DNA from: Patescibacteria group bacterium
GTDB lineage: Bacteria > Patescibacteriota > Patescibacteriia > XYB2-FULL-38-15
DNA: 64,000 nucleotides
Assembly: GCA_041737355.1 (NCBI GenBank)
Contig: JBGSRW010000009.1
Location: 5,323 to 69,322, forward strand
Direction of reading: 5' to 3'
Shown: piece after piece, positions 4,440-53,134 of the stretch
Layout of the letters: each line of letters opens with the position of its first letter
Numbering within the stretch: the first letter of the stretch is position 1
Made by a program: the position numbers and the translations under genes
Notes under the pieces: model-generated
Databases searched by the model: none
What the model saw: only the letters and a program-made list of their open reading frames with translations
What the model was told of the DNA's origin: nothing

Positions 4440-5240
4440 ATGGATTTGTCGATAATTATTTTAAACTACAGGGCGCGCGGACTTCTCAAGGAATGCCTTA
4501 AGGGAATAAAAATGGCGCAGCCGAAGATTAATTTTGAAATTATTGTCGTGGATAATGCCTCTGGCGACGGAACGCCGGCCATGATGGAGGAGGGTTTTCC
4601 CGACATCCGTTTTATAGCTTCAGATAAAAATATCGGATACGCCAGGGGAAATAATCTTGGTATCAAGGAGGCGAAGGGCCGTTATGTTATGATTATGAAT
4701 CCGGATATAGTTGTATTCGAGGGGGTTTTTGAAAAATTAGTTGAATTTATGGACGGCCGGCCGGATGTCGGAATTATCGGACCGAAGCTTTTGAATCCGG
4801 ATAAATCTTTGCAGTATTCCTGCTATCGTTTTCCGGATTTTTGGGAGCCGGTTTACCGCCGGACACCGATCGGGAAATTCGGTTTTGCAAAAAAGAAACT
4901 GGATCTTTACTTCATGAAGGATTTTGATCACGCTTCGGTCAGGGAAGTCGATTGGCTTTTGGGTGGATGTTTCCTAATCCGCCGCAAGGCACTGGATGAA
5001 GTCGGGTTGCTCGACGAGAGATATTTTGCTTATTTTGACGATGTTGATTTATGCCGGAGTATGTGGGAGAAAAAATGGAAAGTGGTTTATTATCCTCTCG
5101 TTTCGGTTATTCATTTTCATCGGCGCGAATCGGCCGAGGGAAAATGGTGGAGCGGAATTTTTAAAAAAGTGACAAGAATACACCTCATGAGCTGGCTTAA
5201 ATATTTCGGAAAATGGAGAAAGAGTGAAAAAAATATTTAA
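4440..5240 (+). CDS. Family-2 glycosyltransferase
   Basis: IIILNYR...VDNASGDGT GT-A N-terminus; DDVD motif. Confidence 0.7.
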   Translation: MDLSIIILNYRARGLLKECLKGIKMAQPKINFEIIVVDNASGDGTPAMMEEGFPDIRFIASDKNIGYARGNNLGIKEAKGRYVMIMNPDIVVFEGVFEKLVEFMDGRPDVGIIGPKLLNPDKSLQYSCYRFPDFWEPVYRRTPIGKFGFAKKKLDLYFMKDFDHASVREVDWLLGGCFLIRRKALDEVGLLDERYFAYFDDVDLCRSMWEKKWKVVYYPLVSVIHFHRRESAEGKWWSGIFKKVTRIHLMSWLKYFGKWRKSEKNI

Positions 5241-8295: not shown

Positions 8296-9429
8296 ATGCT
8301 TATCGGTATTGACGCCTCACGCGCCAATAAATCGGAGAAGACGGGAACCGAATGGTATTCCTACCATTTGATTCAAGAATTAAAAAAAATTGCTGATCTA
8401 AAAGATCGGTTTATTTTATATTCGAGGGAAAAATTGCGGGGGGATCTCGGGAAACTTTCGGAAAATTGGCAGAGCAAAATTCTTTCCTGGCGGCCAAAGA
8501 AATTTTGGACGCAAATAAGATTATCCTGGGAAATGCGCCGCCGGCCGCCGGAAGTTCTTTTTGTCCCGGCACATACTCTTCCCTTTATTCATCCCCAAAA
8601 AACGGTTACAACCTGCCACGACGTAGCTTTTTTGCGTTTGCCACAAGTTTATGACTGGCCAGCCTTGAAATATCATGAATTAGCCTTAAAATTCGCCCTG
8701 CGCCACGCGACTAAAATCATTACCGTTTCGGAATTTACGAAGAGCGAAATTTTGGAATTTTTTAAAATTTCTCCCGAGCGGATCGCAGTCGTGCCGAACG
8801 GTTATGACAGCAGCCGGTATAAAATAATTGACGATAAAGAGGCAATAAAAAAAGTTTTGGAAAAATGCAAAATCAGCCAGCCGTATATTTTATATGTCGG
8901 CCGCTTGGAACTGAAAAAGAATACGCCGGGTTTGTTGGAGGCGTTTAAAATTTTAAAGAAAAATTTAAAGTCCTCGGCTGAAAATTCTCAATTAAAATTG
9001 GTACTGGCCGGCCAGCCGGGATTTGGTTTTGAAAAAGTTGCCAAAGCAATTGTGGACAATGATTTGCACGATCAAATCATTATGCCGGGCTGGGTGGAAC
9101 CGGATGATTTGCCGTATTTGATGAACGGTGCGAACGCTTTCGTCTTTCCATCTTTCTACGAAGGGTTTGGCATTCCGATTTTGGAAGCTATGGCTTCGGG
9201 CACGCCGGTTGTTTGCTCAGGTATTCCGGCGCTCCGCGAGGTAGCAGGGGAGGCGGCCTATTTTGTCGATCCCTACGAACCGAAAAATATTGCCGAAGGC
9301 ATAGAGCGGGTTCTTGGGGATGAACATCTCCGAGAAGATTTGAGAATCCGTGGGTTGGCCAAAGCGCAGGATTTCAGTTGGGATAGATGCGCCAGAGAGA
9401 CGTGGAAAGTATTGGAAAATTTGAGATAG
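8296..9429 (+). CDS. GT-B fold family-4 (group 1) glycosyltransferase
   Basis: C-terminal EGFGIPILEAMASGTPVV motif typical of the GT4 family. Confidence 0.75.
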   Translation: MLIGIDASRANKSEKTGTEWYSYHLIQELKKIADLKDRFILYSREKLRGDLGKLSENWQSKILSWRPKKFWTQIRLSWEMRRRPPEVLFVPAHTLPFIHPQKTVTTCHDVAFLRLPQVYDWPALKYHELALKFALRHATKIITVSEFTKSEILEFFKISPERIAVVPNGYDSSRYKIIDDKEAIKKVLEKCKISQPYILYVGRLELKKNTPGLLEAFKILKKNLKSSAENSQLKLVLAGQPGFGFEKVAKAIVDNDLHDQIIMPGWVEPDDLPYLMNGANAFVFPSFYEGFGIPILEAMASGTPVVCSGIPALREVAGEAAYFVDPYEPKNIAEGIERVLGDEHLREDLRIRGLAKAQDFSWDRCARETWKVLENLR

Positions 9430-9498
9430 AAAAATCGAAGTAAAAGGTAATTTTTTTATTATCTCGCTTAGCGGGATTTTTATTTTTAGAAATAAAAA

Positions 9499-9550
9499 AG
9501 AAGGCCCGTCCGCAAGTAGGATTTAGAGTCCTATTCGCAGGCAGGCCTTT
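9499..9550 (-). terminator. Intrinsic terminator for minus-strand island I2
   Basis: Imperfect 20+ bp hairpin (aaggcc...ggcctt) followed on the minus strand by cttttttatttc. Confidence 0.55.
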
Positions 9551-9601
9551 GGGGAAAAAGAACGGGTGGGTTACGAACCGGTGGGCCCGATTGGCGGGAA
9601 A

Positions 9602-9808
9602 CTACGATGAGAGGTCGTCGGCCGGGTCCTCGAGCTGCCCGCCCGTGGCGAGCAGCCGGACGTGGTCGGCGAAGGTGTCCAGGTCGGCCGCGCGATCGCG
9701 GTCCGGACCGGAACGCCAGACGCCGTCATCCTGGACCATGTCGGCCGGGTCGGCGCCTTCGACCAGCGCTTCGTAGCGCCGGTCCATCTCACTCAGCACG
9801 TTTCTCAC
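9602..9808 (-). CDS. G+C-rich small acidic hypothetical protein (island I2), about 68 aa from GTG
   Basis: GGAGGTG RBS 5 nt before GTG; D/E-rich product VRNVLSEMDRRYEALVEGADPADM...; the ORF track gives a longer 101-aa version from an upstream GTG. Confidence 0.4.
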   Translation of the reverse strand: MRNVLSEMDRRYEALVEGADPADMVQDDGVWRSGPDRDRAADLDTFADHVRLLATGGQLEDPADDLSS

Positions 9809-10171
9809 TTTTCCACCTCCATCCCCTGATGGTCGCACTTCCTCCTTTTGGAATTTGGCGGCCATCCGGCTGGGCAAAATATTTTTGCTCAATCGGTCGG
9901 TCGTCACTTAATAATTTTAATCCTTCTTTCGGGAAAAAAGAAGGGGTTTCAAGACTTGCGTCCATCCACCCCCCCCTGCAGTTCAGTGCGCGCCCCGCGC
10001 TGCGGTTCTCAGAATTTTTTGTTCCTCCTCTTTCTTGCTGTGAGTTGCTGACTTGTCTCATCGCCGGCCTCATCTGCCGGCGTGCGCTTGCGGGGCCTCC
10101 CGCACAAAGTGCGGTACTCCGGTCCTTGGCCGGTTCTAGGCTGTAACCGGATTCCCCAGGTTCGGTGCTTT

Positions 10172-10201
10172 AAATTTATCATATTTTCTTAATTTTGTCA
10201 A
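10172..10201 (-). promoter_or_regulatory. Minus-strand sigma70-type promoter driving island I2 (TTGACAAAA-N14-TGATAAATT)
   Basis: Reverse complement reads cTTGACAAAAttaagaaaatatgaTAAATT; the 18-nt core is near-identical to the promoter at 11565-11593. Confidence 0.55.
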
Positions 10202-10306
10202 GAGTTGTTGACAGAATAAATAAAAATAGCCCTTACAAAAGGGCTTTATTTTATTAAAAGTTTATGCTATGATAACAAAATAATTAATCTTAAATTGTGC
10301 ATAAAT

Positions 10307-11065
10307 ATGCTCGAGAAAGAATTACAAAAATTAGGTCTGTCCGATAAAGAGGCTAAAGTTTATCTGTCCTCAATGGAACTTGGCCCTTCGCCCGTGCAAA
10401 ATATTGCCGGTAAAGCCGGAGTCAATCGGGCTACGACTTACGTGATGATCGAATCTTTAATTGGCAGGGGATTGATGAGCTCTTTTGAAAAAGGAAAGAA
10501 AAGATTTTTTACTTCAGGCTCTCCTGATCATCTTTTGGCCTTGCTCCACAAAGAGGAAGTTGAAATTAAAGAAAAAACCCGACAATTTGAAGAAATTTTG
10601 CCGGAATTGAAAACCCTTTTCGCCGCGGCCGAAGAAAAACCAAGATTAAGATTCTTCGAAGGCGCGGAAGGGTTAAGAGCGATTCAGGATGATATTTTAA
10701 AATCGAAATATGAGAGTTTTGAGGAAGTTGTGGCGCTGGATGAGTTTTACAAAATTTTTCCTCCCGACGACAAAGACCACAGAAAAAAATTGTCGGATAA
10801 GACAAAAGACATGTCTTTCAGGCTTATTTATACGACAGCCAAAGGGAAATCCCTATCCTCAAAAGAGGGAAGAAGAGAAAGGCGCTACATCCCGCCGGAA
10901 AAATTTCCTTTTTCAACCGATTTGGTTATCTATGGGCAAAAGGTAGCAATCGGAGTCTGCAAGGGTAAAATTATTGGAGTTATTATCGAGAGTAAGGAAA
11001 TCAGTGAAACCTTGAGGGCAATTTTCAACCTGGCCTGGGATGCGGCGGAAAAATACCAGAAATAA
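10307..11065 (+). CDS. TrmB-family transcriptional regulator
   Basis: N-terminal wHTH LSDKEAKVYLSSMELGPSPVQNIAGKAGVNRATTYVMIESLIGRGL typical of the TrmB family. Confidence 0.6.
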   Translation: MLEKELQKLGLSDKEAKVYLSSMELGPSPVQNIAGKAGVNRATTYVMIESLIGRGLMSSFEKGKKRFFTSGSPDHLLALLHKEEVEIKEKTRQFEEILPELKTLFAAAEEKPRLRFFEGAEGLRAIQDDILKSKYESFEEVVALDEFYKIFPPDDKDHRKKLSDKTKDMSFRLIYTTAKGKSLSSKEGRRERRYIPPEKFPFSTDLVIYGQKVAIGVCKGKIIGVIIESKEISETLRAIFNLAWDAAEKYQK

Positions 11066-11137
11066 AAAAATAGCCCGGTAATATGGTGCTGCGTCTCTGA
11101 TCTTGTAGCCAAGATGCAGACACCTTATTCCCGGGCT
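11062..11137. terminator. Bidirectional terminator-like hairpin
   Basis: agcccgg ... ccgggct outer stem with an inner hairpin, flanked by an A-run on the left and a T-containing stretch on the right. Confidence 0.5.
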
Positions 11138-11556
11138 TTGCGCCAGGGTTGAAGTCGGCTCGTGCCGGTTTATCTTCCCAGACGCTGGTTCTTCACTTCG
11201 ATCCGATTGGACCGACGACTTCCGCTCGTGCGGCAGGAGAAGGAGAGTCGTTACCCACCTTCACCACAGTTCGCCGTCCGTCGCTTCTGAAACCATCTTG
11301 AACCACTTCCGTGAGCTCCCCAAAACATGACGTTCATACCTCCTTCGCGGAGGACTTATCGGAAAGCAGCAAGCCAAGACCGTTAGGCCTCAAAGCTCTG
11401 CCGCGAAAATCCCGGGGCGATCACGAAATTGTGACCAAGCACCAAAGGATCCTCCTTTCTAGCGGCGTAAGCTTAAAAGCCCGCGAGTCGGTCGAGAAGT
11501 CGAGCTGCCATCCAAAAAAGTCTCCGCAATCTGATGCGGCGGGACACCCCGCCTTT
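11138..11556 (-). ncRNA. Candidate long structured non-coding RNA (island I3)
   Basis: Roughly 470 nt, G+C-rich, minus-strand unit between promoter (11565-11593) and terminator (11062-11137); no minus-strand ORF of 60 aa or more; many local helices; weak, unconvincing resemblance to RNase P CR-I/CR-II strings. Confidence 0.35.
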
Positions 11557-11564
11557 GATGGTTT

Positions 11565-11593
11565 AAATTTATCATATTTCAGAAGTTTTGTCA
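11565..11593 (-). promoter_or_regulatory. Minus-strand promoter driving island I3
   Basis: Reverse complement reads aTTGACAAAActtctgaaatatgaTAAATT; same core as the 10172-10201 promoter. Confidence 0.55.
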
Positions 11594-11632
11594 ATAGTTA
11601 ATAACAAAAGGCGGATTTTTAAAAGAAAAAGT

Positions 11633-12613
11633 ATGTCTTTCAGCGAGATTATCGGCCATAAAAATGTTATAAGTTTTTTAGAAAAAAGCGTGAAAAACGG
11701 TCAAGTTTCCCACGCTTATTTGTTTTATGGCCCGAAACGGCTCGGTAAGGGAACAATCGCGGAAAAATTCGCCGAGATGCTCGTTGGCCAGCCGGTTGCC
11801 GGGCATCCGGATGTTTATTTTATCCGCCGGGAGAAAGATGAAAAAGAGGAGAAAATGATGAGTGAAATAAGTATTGCTCAGATGCGGGAATTGGAGAGAA
11901 AACTTTCCTTAAGCTCCTTTTTAAACTCGTATAAAATTGCTATTATAGAAGAGGCGGAAACTATGAGTATTGAGGCGGCCAACAGTCTTTTGAAGACCCT
12001 GGAAGAGCCGACGCCAAAAACGCTGATTATTCTTTTATCTTCAAGTTTGTCGGCGCTGCCGGCAACGATAGTTTCGCGCTGCCAGACCTTAAAATTTTTG
12101 CCGGTCAGCGAAAAAGAAATTTACCAATATCTGGTCGGCCGGGGAGCGGGAAGGGACGAAGCTCAAAATTTTTCCAAGGCCTCATGGGGAAAACCGGGAG
12201 CGGCCATAAATTTTTGGGAAACAAGAAACGAAAGCGATTCTTCGGCGATGGCCAGCTATCTCGAGGACGTGAAAGGGATAATTGATCTCATGAAAGATGA
12301 TACTTTGGCTGGAAAAATGAAAATTTTTGAAAAATATTTTAATAAAGAAAAAGCTCCGGAAGATCTCACCAACTCTCTGAACAGAATTTTGTCGCTTTGG
12401 ATTTCCGTCTTGCGCGATGCGGCGCTCGTAAAAACAAATTGTTCGGAGATGATTTCCAATCAGATATTTCTTGAGGACATAAAAAAAATAGCCCGAAGGT
12501 TTGACGCGGGGTTTTTCCCCAAACTTTACGGAGAAATAGGCCAGGCGAGCCGTTATTTCCGGGACAATTTCAACCCCCGGTTAGTTTTGGAAAATTTAAT
12601 GTTATCTTTTTAA
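11633..12613 (+). CDS. holB: DNA polymerase III delta-prime subunit
   Basis: AAA+ clamp-loader N-terminus (HAYLFYGPKRLGKGT), SRC motif (SRCQ). Confidence 0.7.
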   Translation: MSFSEIIGHKNVISFLEKSVKNGQVSHAYLFYGPKRLGKGTIAEKFAEMLVGQPVAGHPDVYFIRREKDEKEEKMMSEISIAQMRELERKLSLSSFLNSYKIAIIEEAETMSIEAANSLLKTLEEPTPKTLIILLSSSLSALPATIVSRCQTLKFLPVSEKEIYQYLVGRGAGRDEAQNFSKASWGKPGAAINFWETRNESDSSAMASYLEDVKGIIDLMKDDTLAGKMKIFEKYFNKEKAPEDLTNSLNRILSLWISVLRDAALVKTNCSEMISNQIFLEDIKKIARRFDAGFFPKLYGEIGQASRYFRDNFNPRLVLENLMLSF

Positions 12614-19965: not shown

Positions 19966-19994
19966 TTGACAAATTCCTGAAAATGTGGTATAGT
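19966..19994 (+). promoter_or_regulatory. Sigma70-type promoter (TTGACA-17-TATAGT) followed by a roughly 110-nt structured leader
   Basis: cTTGACAaattcctgaaaatgtggTATAGT; the leader contains a long stem gggtaaggatt...aatccttatcc and the hairpin gcgtttcacaagaacgc. Confidence 0.55.
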
Positions 19995-20119
19995 AATTAA
20001 ATATGCGTAAATCTTGTGTCATAATAACTTCTAATAGGGTAAGGATTGGCTCGGCTGAAAGGTCGGTCGCGTTTCACAAGAACGCTCGCAAATCCTTATC
20101 CGATTAGAGGTTTTTTGTT

Positions 20120-20431
20120 ATGAAGCGTGGCTATATAAGGGTATGGAGAAAAATTTTTGACAATCCCCTTTCGAATAAGCCAGCTTATATGTGGCTCTGG
20201 TTGTCGCTTTTGCTTTTAGTAAATCATAAATCAAAAGAGATTATGTGGAACGGCGAAATAATAATAATTAGGGAGGGACAACTTTTAACTGGCAGGAAGG
20301 AATTATCAAGACAAACTGGTATTCCTGAGTCAACTATTGAGGATATTTTAAAAACGCTCGAAAAGCTGAAGGAAGTCAACCCCGAGAATCAGAAGTTGGA
20401 AGAACTGGAGGAAAGAATAAAAAATATTTAG
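20120..20431 (+). CDS. Winged-HTH replication-initiator/replisome-organiser N-terminal-domain-like fragment fused in frame to repeat copy 2
   Basis: Pattern AYMWLWLSLLLLVNHKSKEIMWNGEIIIIREGQLLTGRKELSRQTGIPESTIEDILKTL resembles plasmid/phage Rep or DnaD-type N-terminal wHTH; the last 27 aa are identical to the TPR protein C-terminus. Confidence 0.4.
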   Translation: MKRGYIRVWRKIFDNPLSNKPAYMWLWLSLLLLVNHKSKEIMWNGEIIIIREGQLLTGRKELSRQTGIPESTIEDILKTLEKLKEVNPENQKLEELEERIKNI

Positions 20432-36342: not shown

Positions 36343-36456
36343 GGCAATCTACTGCTAGAAGTCCAGCAAAAGGCAGGACTTGCAATATAAAATTTGCGCA
36401 AAAGTAGTGGATTGTCTCTCGCCAAAAACACGACACGATGAAGTGTCGCGTTTTTT
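36343..36456 (+). ncRNA. Candidate small structured RNA with its own terminator
   Basis: 11-bp long-range stem (gagaggcaatc/gattgtctctc) enclosing hairpins, then the terminator cgacacgatgaagtgtcg plus tttttt; no ORF. Confidence 0.3.
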
Positions 36457-36467
36457 GTTAGAATATC

Positions 36468-36496
36468 TTGACAAAATATTAAAGCCATGATAAGCT
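36468..36496 (+). promoter_or_regulatory. Promoter of cassette 1 (TTGACAAAA-N14-TGaTAAGCT)
   Basis: Near-consensus -35 element and extended -10 element. Confidence 0.55.
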
Positions 36497-36517
36497 GATT
36501 TGTCGTTCGTGGTTTTG

Positions 36518-36577
36518 TTTTGGCGGTTTTATAACCTTCAAAATAAGGCCAGGAATGGTCCTGCCTATGGATGGATG
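36518..36577 (+). repeat. 60-nt conserved leader copy 1 (copy 2 at 37146-37205), ending in the start codon
   Basis: ttttggcggttttataaccttcaaaataaggccaggaatggtcctgcctatggatggATG identical in both copies; contains the hairpin gccaggaatggtcctgc that overlaps an AGGA. Confidence 0.85.
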
Positions 36578-36970
36578 CCCGGTAACCTTTGGGTTGGAAA
36601 GGGAGAGATGGAGAAGGCTACGGAGCTGGAACTTCCGAAGGAGATGACGGTCGGCGGCGTCACCTACGAGGTTGTCTCTTGCCTCAAGGAGGGCGAGGAG
36701 AGCGTCGACGGCGACGTGATGATGGAGCGGGCTTGGGAGATGAAGGCCAACCTCGGCCAGGATGACGGCGAGTTCATCCTCGCCCACCAGGACGAGATCC
36801 CGGTCGCCTTCCGCGACAAGATCGAGTTCGTCTTCCCTAACTGGCGGTCACGAAGGTTTCCCTCCGAGATCGTCATATGCGTCGAATGGGAGGGCGACCA
36901 CTGGGAGGAGAACCAAGGCTGGCTCGAAGACGACTGGTGCGACTTCGTTCGTCTCCTCCGCCGCAAGTAG
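36575..36970 (+). CDS. G+C-rich small acidic Trp-rich hypothetical protein (cassette 1), 131 aa
   Basis: Starts at the third ATG of the conserved leader; MPGNLWVGKGEMEK...EWEGDHWEENQGWLEDDWCDF; no known domain. Confidence 0.45.
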   Translation: MPGNLWVGKGEMEKATELELPKEMTVGGVTYEVVSCLKEGEESVDGDVMMERAWEMKANLGQDDGEFILAHQDEIPVAFRDKIEFVFPNWRSRRFPSEIVICVEWEGDHWEENQGWLEDDWCDFVRLLRRK

Positions 36971-52979: not shown

Positions 52980-53134
52980 GGGGCTGTAGCTCAAAGTCTG
53001 AAACAGCGTTTGGTAATGGCTTAGGTCATGACCAGCGCCGTAGACGAAGCAGAGCATTTGGGGGAAGGCGCGTGAGAGTAACTACTGGCGCCCGAACCAG
53101 AAGGTTGGAGGTTCAAGCCCTCCCAGCCCCGCCA
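52980..53134 (+). ncRNA. 155-nt tRNA-like element: perfect 7-bp acceptor stem, canonical T-arm and CCA, with about 80 extra structured nt where the D and anticodon arms should be
   Basis: 5' GGGGCTG pairs with 3' CAGCCCC-G-CCA; T-arm GGAGGTTCAAGCCCTCC; the interior contains hairpins (gctgt..acagc, ggtcatgacc, ctgg..ccag) but no standard cloverleaf. Confidence 0.5.

Follow-up and report, generated by a model that had tools for sequence, protein, structure and literature searches.

What is encoded on the minus strand between the genes trmB and holB in a 64,000-nucleotide (nt) stretch of a Patescibacteria contig (JBGSRW010000009.1), referred to below as the window? A sequence-only reading of this DNA had proposed a G+C-rich non-coding transcript at this position. 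We favor, with modest confidence, a different answer, namely that the region specifies a TrmB-linked, independently transcribed and structured small mRNA, here called RNA A, the leader of which would gate translation of a conserved and unannotated micro-protein of 25 amino acids (aa). The conservation and synteny of the element, the coding signature of its short open reading frame (sORF), a common fold, and the enrichment of a palindrome were all obtained in this analysis.

In the mechanism that we infer, which extends to transcription and translation, a Shine-Dalgarno (SD) switch, and TrmB binding, a strong promoter would carry its −35 box within a palindrome that most likely serves the neighboring regulator of the TrmB family as its operator. 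The first ~225 nt of the transcript would fold into a 5′ hairpin, a closing helix (P0/P1), a variable element (P2), and the helices P3 and P4. The ribosome-binding site of the micro-ORF would be held in a CCUCC/GGAGG hairpin, and the CCUCC (11349–11353) could alternatively pair with an upstream GGAG (11522–11525; P0, stacked on P1); since it is shared by the SD hairpin and P0, access to the SD would depend on how the leader domain folds. The product would be a micro-protein of 24–29 aa, and a conserved hairpin together with a long intrinsic terminator would stop transcription right at the 3′ end of trmB.

Homologous loci were collected with the TrmB protein as query, which gave 15 loci in species-representative genomes (Patescibacteria, several labeled Candidatus Falkowbacteria); 80 further trmB loci came from metagenomes and 13 from eight exact-protein look-ups of TrmB homologues sharing 58–84% identity. 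Individual loci are cited by L-numbers. Searches with nhmmer, in which the query was first the window sequence and afterwards a profile, found the element in 18 distinct sequences, the window and 17 others from Patescibacteria or Falkowbacteria-like organisms, and in all 18 it lies between trmB and holB on the strand opposite trmB. The comparison across relatives that had been recommended from the sequence thus uncovered 17 additional examples. A locus identical to that of the window is also carried by the sequencing run SRR28170473. The leader core (alignment columns 227–271) shows 75–93% identity in sequence pairs in which the third codon positions of trmB are saturated (41–49% identity), and it is as conserved as trmB codon positions 1 and 2; given this identity in spite of saturated third positions, the region is conserved among relatives. 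A scan of viral contigs for the leader core returned no match, and no description of the element was found in the literature searched, which covered small proteins of the candidate phyla radiation (CPR), structured RNAs, and one survey from the Breaker laboratory.

The micro-ORF itself, recognized from in-frame indels, the ratio of nonsynonymous to synonymous change (pN/pS), a family motif, and the alignment, occupies positions 11328..11251 of the minus strand and comprises 25 codons (MFWGAHGSGSRWFQKRRTANCGEGG) plus a stop codon. Its conserved start is the AUG at 11328, which is the second AUG of a peptide beginning MNVMFWG; the first AUG is not conserved. A micro-ORF of about 28 aa had been singled out for checking, and it proves to be conserved with the amendment that it starts at MFWG. 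An SD (GGAGG) is situated 8–10 nt 5′ of the conserved AUG. The frame is kept open for 24–29 codons in 11 sequences (examples beside that of the window are MFWGYRATGKKWLQKRRTEHCGSEGG, MYWGGKDKKWLQKPRTEHCGGEGG, MFLGGRGAKGGKLKKWLQKPATANCGTGK, and MSHNATAKHWFLPRMLKCPRTCSSEGGG), and all differences in length are multiples of three. For the nine ORFs that could be aligned, pN/pS is 0.33 in frame versus 1.47 and 0.80 in the two shifted frames, with values as low as 0.09–0.18 for individual pairs. This is a protein-coding pattern of conservation, and with a coding signature and a conserved peptide family the region can no longer be described as non-coding.

The predicted product is a basic micro-protein of 24–29 residues containing Trp, Cys, and Gly, with the motif MFWG..(K/R)W.QKRRT..C..GG, in the alignment of which C and G are invariant. 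Peptides sharing the core W-x-(Q/L)-(K/R)-x-x-(T/V)-(A/E)-(H/N/R)-C-x-x-G-x-stop are also found 3′ of trmB, on the strand opposite this gene, in distant lineages whose TrmB has only 39–55% identity (L011, L021, L024, L034, L040, and L054). Their sequences are MWFFPTRKRWLLRPVAHCRGGA, MWRNPSYQRWLKPPVARCKAGA, MWQNPTYRRWMRQPVRRCDKGQ, MRSKNSVVIDFWAQKWTLRAVAHCHEGS, MRTQVLVNFWVQKGALRAIAHCPGGS, and ...NWLLRPVARCNGGH, each with its own promoter, SD, and terminator. Short-leader versions of the peptide gene exist as well (for instance MKRFMVPRTAHCPDGQ), the long leader being missing from L014, L019, and L020. A regular expression for the motif, which was defined after the data had been seen, matches at 0.29 per kb in the 650 nt 3′ of trmB versus 0.0066 per kb in controls totaling 763 kb (44-fold), and the micro-ORF is its sole match in the 64-kb window. 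All of these peptides are shorter than the length cut-off of gene callers. At L024:4323 (minus), some 1.1 kb downstream of trmB, a family-1 micro-ORF encoding MRTQVLVNFWVQKGALRAIAHCPGGS was noted with a strong SD and a palindrome nearby (4474–4491); because other sequence separates it from trmB, the linkage to this gene is not always immediate.

The leader was examined in a MAFFT alignment of 17 sequences and through an independent minimum free energy (MFE) fold of each, and one multi-helix architecture spanning ~225 nt was recovered in 15 of 16 such folds. It opens with the 5′-terminal hairpin GGCGGG-GUGU-CCCGCC (11538..11553, minus strand, as are all coordinates in this paragraph), in which 100% of the alignment cells are paired and pair 16–31 occurs as GC in nine sequences, AU in five, and GU in two. 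The 5′ strand of P0, UUGCGGAG (11522..11529), is predicted to pair with the anti-SD region and to leave the SD free, as indicated by per-sequence MFE folds, RNAalifold pairs 46–49/283–286, and an energy comparison. P1 is formed by a variable 5′ strand, UUGGAUGGCAGC (11504..11515), drawn from RNAduplex and hand-anchored pair counts, and a 3′ strand (11359..11375), defined by the same two approaches and by leader-core conservation, which includes the near-invariant GGCUUGCUGC and reads GGCUUGCUGCUUY as a consensus across sequences. Between P1 and P3 the folds place the variable region P2 (11476..11503), a UCGA-CUUC-UCGA hairpin in the window and 13–73 nt of CA-rich or unstructured sequence in relatives. 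The alignment defines the 5′ strand of P3 (AAGCUU..GCCGC), followed by an orphan SD-like UAGAAAGGAGG (11451..11474); the 3′ strand is GCGGC-ag-AGCUUU (11392..11404), the inner helix is 100% paired, and in L023 P3 is lengthened to ~15 bp. P4 (GAGGCC-uaac-GGUCUU, 11376..11391) is 97.9% paired, its pair 244–254 being GC in six sequences, GU in six, and AU in four, and its pair 241–257 being UA in L023. Last comes the anti-SD/SD hairpin CCUCC-GCGAA-GGAGG (11339..11353), a local hairpin predicted at −5.5 to −12 kcal/mol in all 17 sequences.

The orphan UAGAAAGGAGG is enclosed by P3 in two of the three clades and is not followed by a conserved start codon. Eight of the 17 sequences have it in the form GAAAGGAGG, L017 has the mutated GAAAGGAUG, and the remaining eight, which are the L003-type clade, are without it. 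A conserved ORF after GAAAGGAGG was considered and rejected since neither starts nor frames are conserved; the C-terminus that the window and L017 have in common there merely reflects the conserved nucleotides of P3 and P4.

In the helices that are in register, 94.3% of cells form standard pairs versus 39–57% when the partners are slid by one to three columns, and four pairs have changed on both sides. The covariation score is 0.184 versus 0.157 in shuffles, and 3 of 500 shuffles reach the observed score. P1 is out of register in the MAFFT alignment and was therefore assessed by RNAduplex and by a hand-anchored alignment. The z-scores from RNAduplex, relative to shuffled 5′ segments, are between −2.6 and −4.9 for 16 of the 17 sequences (mean about −3.8). 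In the hand-anchored alignment, which was fitted to the helix and is biased in its favor, 82% of cells are paired versus 39–57% when slid, CG↔GC and UA↔GC double changes occur, and none of 500 shuffles reaches the covariation score. Because the 5′ strands of P1 and of the 3′ hairpin H3 (see below) are out of register, RNAalifold recovers only part of the structure from the raw MAFFT alignment. G-U pairs are numerous, which speaks for the minus strand as that of the RNA. We regard the evidence for a common predicted fold as good. In constrained folding, the SD-free (P0) and SD-sequestered states differ by no more than ~4 kcal/mol for 16 of the 17 sequences, and such nearly equal computed energies are compatible with a switch.

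Several observations weigh against the view that RNA A serves mainly to deliver a micro-protein from a switched leader. Most paired positions are invariant, so that the evidence from compensatory change, real as it is, is modest, and RNAalifold proposes a competing local hairpin, GCGGC..GCUGC, although L023 breaks this hairpin and extends P3 instead. The late definition of the motif expression and the fitted P1 alignment, noted above with their numbers, belong here too. The peptides have no relative in Pfam, NCBIfam, PHROGs, or the PDB (matches to uL11 in the PDB at E = 1 are noise), and an exact look-up of 10 family peptides and start variants found none of them among 15 billion predicted proteins; with neither a profile match nor an exact one, nothing points to the function of the peptide. 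Finally, in a sister clade (L006, L007, L015, L023, L107, and L109) and in the more distant L005 the ORF has only 5–6 codons, encoding MGDSGD, MGDEG, MGDCG, MGDGGD, MGDAD, or MGDEGN, while promoter, 5′ hairpin, leader domain, SD hairpin, H3, and terminator are all kept. As the RNA is retained there with so short an ORF, the long peptide is dispensable in that clade and the RNA may be the functional product. The MGD of these tiny ORFs is maintained through synonymous changes (GGA/GGT/GGC and GAT/GAC). The chromosome OZ246416.1 belongs to this tiny-ORF clade. The RNA may be functional in its own right, or what matters may be the loading of ribosomes.

These data bring up the possibility, to which we give a distinctly smaller share of belief, that RNA A acts chiefly as a non-coding RNA, regulatory or protein-binding, or else has a dual function, with the leader and 3′ domain as the functional product and a micro-ORF that is accessory or only loads ribosomes and stabilizes the RNA. 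The L006-type clade and L005, which keep the RNA with an ORF of only 5–6 codons, speak for this, and the preservation of MGD by synonymous changes suggests that ribosome engagement counts for more than the peptide. Near-invariant sequences (GGCUUGCUGC and AGCUUUGAGGCC) within helices that are free to covary suggest sequence-specific recognition or alternative pairings, and the orphan GAAAGGAGG, an SD-like tract without a start codon, resembles the STAB-SD stabilizer. Set against this are the purifying selection on the long sORF in 11 sequences and the occurrence of the peptide family without the long leader (L014, L019, L034, and L011). The invariant 13-mer, moreover, has no complementary target in the 64-kb window other than the element itself, and Rfam offers no match. 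Loci L014, L019, and L020 have the peptide and no leader at all, and in L104 the leader is without its central domain; because each occurs without the other in some lineages, leader and peptide are separable modules.

Tiny ORFs were also observed 3′ of trmB, on the minus strand, in the distant loci L009, L010, L012, L033, and L035. There, a promoter palindrome of the type AGTCA-N8-TGACA is followed by an upstream ORF of 16–87 codons, a terminal anti-SD/SD hairpin, and a tiny ORF (MGAGRP, MGASQ, MGNHS, MGTGY, or MGMGG), which in L010 and L033 is in frame with the upstream ORF.

Returning to the small mRNA that we favor, its transcription unit is delimited by sequence signals. A sigma-70-type promoter with an extended −10 element, TTGACA-17 nt-(TG)aTAAATT (10 of 12 matches), is found at 11594..11566 on the minus strand and predicts a transcription start at ~11559–11562. 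This extended −10 promoter is kept in the homologues. The pattern TTGACA-N14-16-TGNTAWANT is present in three copies in the window versus 0.01 expected; the second copy, 1.4 kb away at 10201..10173, heads a second G+C-rich minus-strand unit, RNA B. A long intrinsic terminator, AGCCCGGGAAU...AUUACCGGGCU followed by U7, lies at 11137–11064 (hairpin 11137–11072, U7 11070–11064), and in the alignment its stem base is 95.8% paired with GU/AU/GC variation. It overlaps the 3′ end of the convergent trmB, the stop codon of which is 11063–11065. On the plus strand the hairpin is followed only by UUUG. The predicted transcript thus runs from ~11559 to ~11064. As predicted from sequence, RNA A has a promoter and a terminator of its own, independent of the flanking genes. 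The separate minus-strand unit put forward in the sequence-only reading is consequently upheld at its promoter and terminator, with two corrections: at ~495 nt it is slightly longer than the 430–470 nt proposed, and the terminator, described as bidirectional, is so only in part, its full U-run being that of the minus strand.

The claim of a G+C-rich region with no long minus-strand ORF also stands. The G+C content of the transcribed region is 0.55–0.56 versus 0.36–0.42 in the flanks, and the ORF listing holds no credible minus-strand ORF of ≥60 aa in the region. Two listed frames of 57 and 60 aa begin at the −35 box or run into antisense trmB, and are not real long ORFs. The dense local helices noted earlier are reflected in the conserved helices and in the fold of the minus strand (MFE −209.8 kcal/mol, z = −5.2 versus shuffles); that of the plus strand is less exceptional (z = −3.0). 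Of the two neighbors, trmB (10307–11065) encodes a winged helix-turn-helix transcriptional regulator of the TrmB family (PF01978), not the tRNA methyltransferase, and is convergent with RNA A, while holB, encoding the delta′ subunit of DNA polymerase III, is divergent from it. RNA A is opposite to all neighboring genes; since nearly all genes of the window are on the plus strand, the two minus-strand units stand out.

Downstream of the micro-ORF, the 3′ untranslated region contains hairpin H3, GCGUCUGGG...CCCUGGCGC (11185–11140, minus strand), which is part of the MFE fold in 17 of 17 sequences. In each of them the 3′ strand of H3 could instead pair, much more weakly, with the 5′ strand of the terminator, and this raises the question of attenuation. 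In such a scheme, translation of the sORF as a leader peptide would choose between terminator (3:4) and antiterminator (2:3), and read-through would run antisense into trmB, creating a feedback loop with the TrmB regulator. The four segments that it calls for are there, with 1:2 (H3) and 3:4 (terminator) in 17 of 17 MFE folds and a possible 2:3 hairpin of −9 to −12 kcal/mol in 17 of 17, one position of which changes from C-G to U-A between clades. The convergence with trmB is kept across Patescibacteria, and the tiny ORF of L015 ends 8 nt 5′ of region 1. Nevertheless, we think attenuation unlikely. The terminator conformer is the more stable one by 9–14 kcal/mol, the z-scores of the 2:3 hairpin are only −1 to −3.5, and the stop codon is anywhere from 8 to ~100 nt away from region 1. 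No gene follows on the same strand, only the convergent 3′ end of trmB lying beyond the terminator, and apart from the C-terminal Gly the peptide has no run of codons for one regulatory amino acid.

How would transcription of RNA A be controlled? An operator-like palindrome, TTGTCAATAGTTAATAACAA, occupies 11588..11607 and differs at two positions from the consensus TTGTCAA-N6-TTGACAA. Its left half, the downstream one for RNA A, is the −35 box of the RNA A promoter, and the −35 hexamer is likewise the downstream half at the promoter of RNA B, where the palindrome (10195–10214) has one mismatch to the consensus; the sequence common to both promoters is (A/T)TTTGTCAA-N6-TTGACAAA(A/T). Overlap with the −35 box is thus seen at both promoters flanking trmB. 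The core TGTCA-N6-9-TGACA is expected 0.03 times per 64 kb, and 80 copies are present in 103 distinct trmB loci (543 kb), 74 of them with an identical spacing of 8 nt (TGTCA-N8-TGACA) and 71 within −200 to +600 nt of trmB. Since trmB was the means by which the loci were gathered, evidence can be drawn only from the clustering within them. We also considered whether the palindrome represents two back-to-back divergent promoters, and rejected this here because the ATG of holB is only 19–27 nt from the plus-strand TTGACA. On the simplest interpretation, the palindrome is probably the operator of the adjacent TrmB-family dimer, which would control both flanking transcripts. The window has one other site with ≤2 mismatches from TTGTCAA-N6-TTGACAA, TTGTTAGAATATCTTGACAA at 36455–36474, just 5′ of an ORF at 36500–36970, and this could be a further TrmB target. 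An apparent second, tandem TrmB-like gene was read from the sequence directly 5′ of the anchor trmB in L011 and L034.

Could RNA A nonetheless be a known RNA? A cmscan search of the window with all 4227 Rfam families at the gathering threshold detected only tRNAs; with permissive filters over 9300–11800 nothing credible appeared at E ≤ 10, and seven homologous loci had no match at the corresponding positions at E ≤ 1. ARAGORN likewise found tRNAs and no transfer-messenger RNA (tmRNA) in the window. The models for RNase P RNA (bacterial types A and B as well as archaeal), tmRNA, 6S RNA, and the signal recognition particle (SRP) RNA, the use of which had been advised, are included in these searches and gave no match, nor did known riboswitch classes, in RNA A or in the seven homologous loci; ideas of a T-box, a glycine riboswitch, or a ribosomal-protein leader found no Rfam support. 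The decision of the sequence-only reading not to call the region rnpB was therefore sound. The two strings that it had likened to RNase P do exist, but the "CR-I" string is the anti-SD/SD hairpin at 11353–11339 and the "CR-II" string consists of the last codons and stop of the micro-ORF. With no Rfam match and these strings otherwise explained, RNase P RNA, tmRNA, 6S, SRP RNA, and known riboswitches are rejected. That a divergent RNase P RNA or another universal RNA was overlooked by the standard models is exceedingly improbable: apart from the loose likeness of these two strings nothing speaks for it, and the element is confined to one Patescibacteria lineage and is absent or radically shortened in the close relatives L014 and L104. 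An essential universal RNA would not be expected to be dispensed with in this way, the central domain being missing from L104 and the whole leader from L014, L019, and L020.

RNA B is a minus-strand unit (9494–10213) of the same design, with a near-identical extended −10 promoter inside its palindrome. Its leader of ~350 nt has up to 70% G+C, starts with GGGGAAUCCGG..., and contains an orphan GAAAGAGGAGG. An SD follows, then a GTG-start ORF (9808–9602, minus) for an acidic protein of 68 aa (MRNVLSEMDRRYEALVEGADPADMVQDDGVWR...), and a conserved terminator with the loop CUCUAAA (9547–9494). The codons of this ORF are strongly G/C-ending in a genome of ~43% G+C. RNA B is conserved in the same clade as RNA A and has no Rfam match. 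Its protein family has 22 members among 5.8 billion cluster representatives, all from this Patescibacteria clade and all annotated as "hypothetical," and contains no Pfam domain. The 179-aa ORF listed for the plus strand at 9607–10146 is, in all probability, spurious and an antisense frame. In the interval from the RNA B promoter to the trmB start there is a perfect hairpin, AGCCCTTACAAAAGGGCT (10228–10245), which is flanked on both strands by A/T runs and looks like a bidirectional terminator or insulator.

The likeness of the two units bears on a last alternative, in which RNA A would be a pseudogene, decayed and frame-shifted, that derives from the gene of the G+C-rich island protein (the RNA B ORF), as the sequence-only reading had considered, or from some other protein gene. 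The promoters and first ~60 nt of the two transcripts are indeed alike and form a 68-nt repeat of 74% identity, but the similarity detected by nhmmer is restricted to the promoter and 5′ hairpin. A tblastn search of five RNA B proteins against 10 RNA A regions (E ≤ 100) produced scattered and inconsistent noise, compared with 1e-15 to 1e-41 at the true locus, and the region is under purifying selection both as RNA and as a 25-codon ORF. Decay of a protein gene is hence very improbable.

Taking the two units together, we put forward, tentatively, the broader proposal that RNA A and RNA B (9494–10166) are the two outputs of an undescribed TrmB-controlled module in this Patescibacteria lineage. 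Each would be strongly promoted and operator-controlled, and each long leader would be a new ligand- or protein-responsive translational switch placed before a tiny protein, with RNA A acting as a riboregulator as well. The riboregulator role would explain why the sister clade keeps the RNA after the ORF has been cut to 5–6 codons.

Two other features of the window may be mentioned. The third and last match to the extended −10 pattern, at 19966–19994 (plus), is followed by a structured leader of ~125 nt ending in GGUUUUUUGUU; the leader (19966–20120) directly precedes the ATG at 20121 of an ORF of ~103 aa, just 5′ of a tRNA cluster, and may be attenuator- or riboswitch-like. At 52980–53131 (plus) there is an Rfam tRNA match of 38 bits that extends over 152 nt for a 71-position model and is not called by ARAGORN; a tRNA gene interrupted by a long insertion or intron may be present here.

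Patescibacteria have tiny genomes with very little intergenic DNA, and to our knowledge almost nothing is known of their regulatory RNAs and small proteins. Yet here ~1.2 kb around a single regulator gene is given over to two conserved transcripts that are predicted to be strongly promoted and highly structured, and the micro-protein encoded by RNA A has been missed by gene callers. If our interpretation is right, it adds a new small-protein family and a new structured leader, and the candidate TrmB operator would define a small, tractable regulon where such circuits are essentially uncharted. A "G+C-rich non-coding island" of an AT-rich genome can conceal a real coding sORF.

Among known systems, bacterial RNase P RNA (RNaseP_bact_a and RNaseP_bact_b) resembles RNA A in size, G+C richness, and two loosely similar strings. 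RNA A differs in matching no covariance model, having no equivalents of P4 or CR-IV/CR-V, being lineage-restricted, and containing an ORF. With translational riboswitches and RNA thermometers it would share a multi-helix domain 5′ of an anti-SD/SD hairpin, an alternative helix (P0) predicted to free the SD, and nearly isoenergetic states; unlike the former, it matches no aptamer class, no ligand is indicated, the regulated ORF has 25 codons, and the central domain is dispensable in L104 and absent from L014-type loci. The dual-function small RNAs, such as SgrS/SgrT, SR1/SR1P, and RNAIII/delta-hemolysin, are likewise transcripts of a few hundred nucleotides that have their own promoter and terminator, are extensively structured, and contain a very small translated ORF, and in the case of sgrT some lineages keep the RNA and lose or truncate the ORF. 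RNA A has no sequence or structural homology to them (no Rfam match), encodes an unrelated peptide, is from a Patescibacteria host, and has no base-pairing target that could be found in the 64-kb window.

The orphan GAAAGGAGG is, we assume, exactly identical to the STAB-SD sequence. STAB-SD is a 5′ mRNA stabilizer of cry3A in Bacillus thuringiensis (PMC4113751), and the two have in common an SD-like purine tract far 5′ of the start codon and without a start of its own, which could bind the 30S subunit and block 5′–3′ decay; the tract in RNA A differs in lying in the P3 internal loop and in being intact in only 8 of 17 sequences (as GAAAGGAUG in a ninth, L017). A further parallel is found in the surveys of GC-rich intergenic regions from the Breaker laboratory, which define sORF candidates (PMC11109978). 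That paper makes no mention of trmB, holB, or Patescibacteria, and RNA A departs from its candidates in the conserved, structured leader of ~225 nt that precedes the sORF. It agrees with them in the long G+C-rich intergenic region, the conserved start and stop, the coding-type conservation, and a position unsuited to regulating a main ORF. RNA A is best placed as a new family within a known kind, that of structured small RNAs encoding sORFs, as defined for example in that survey (PMC11109978).

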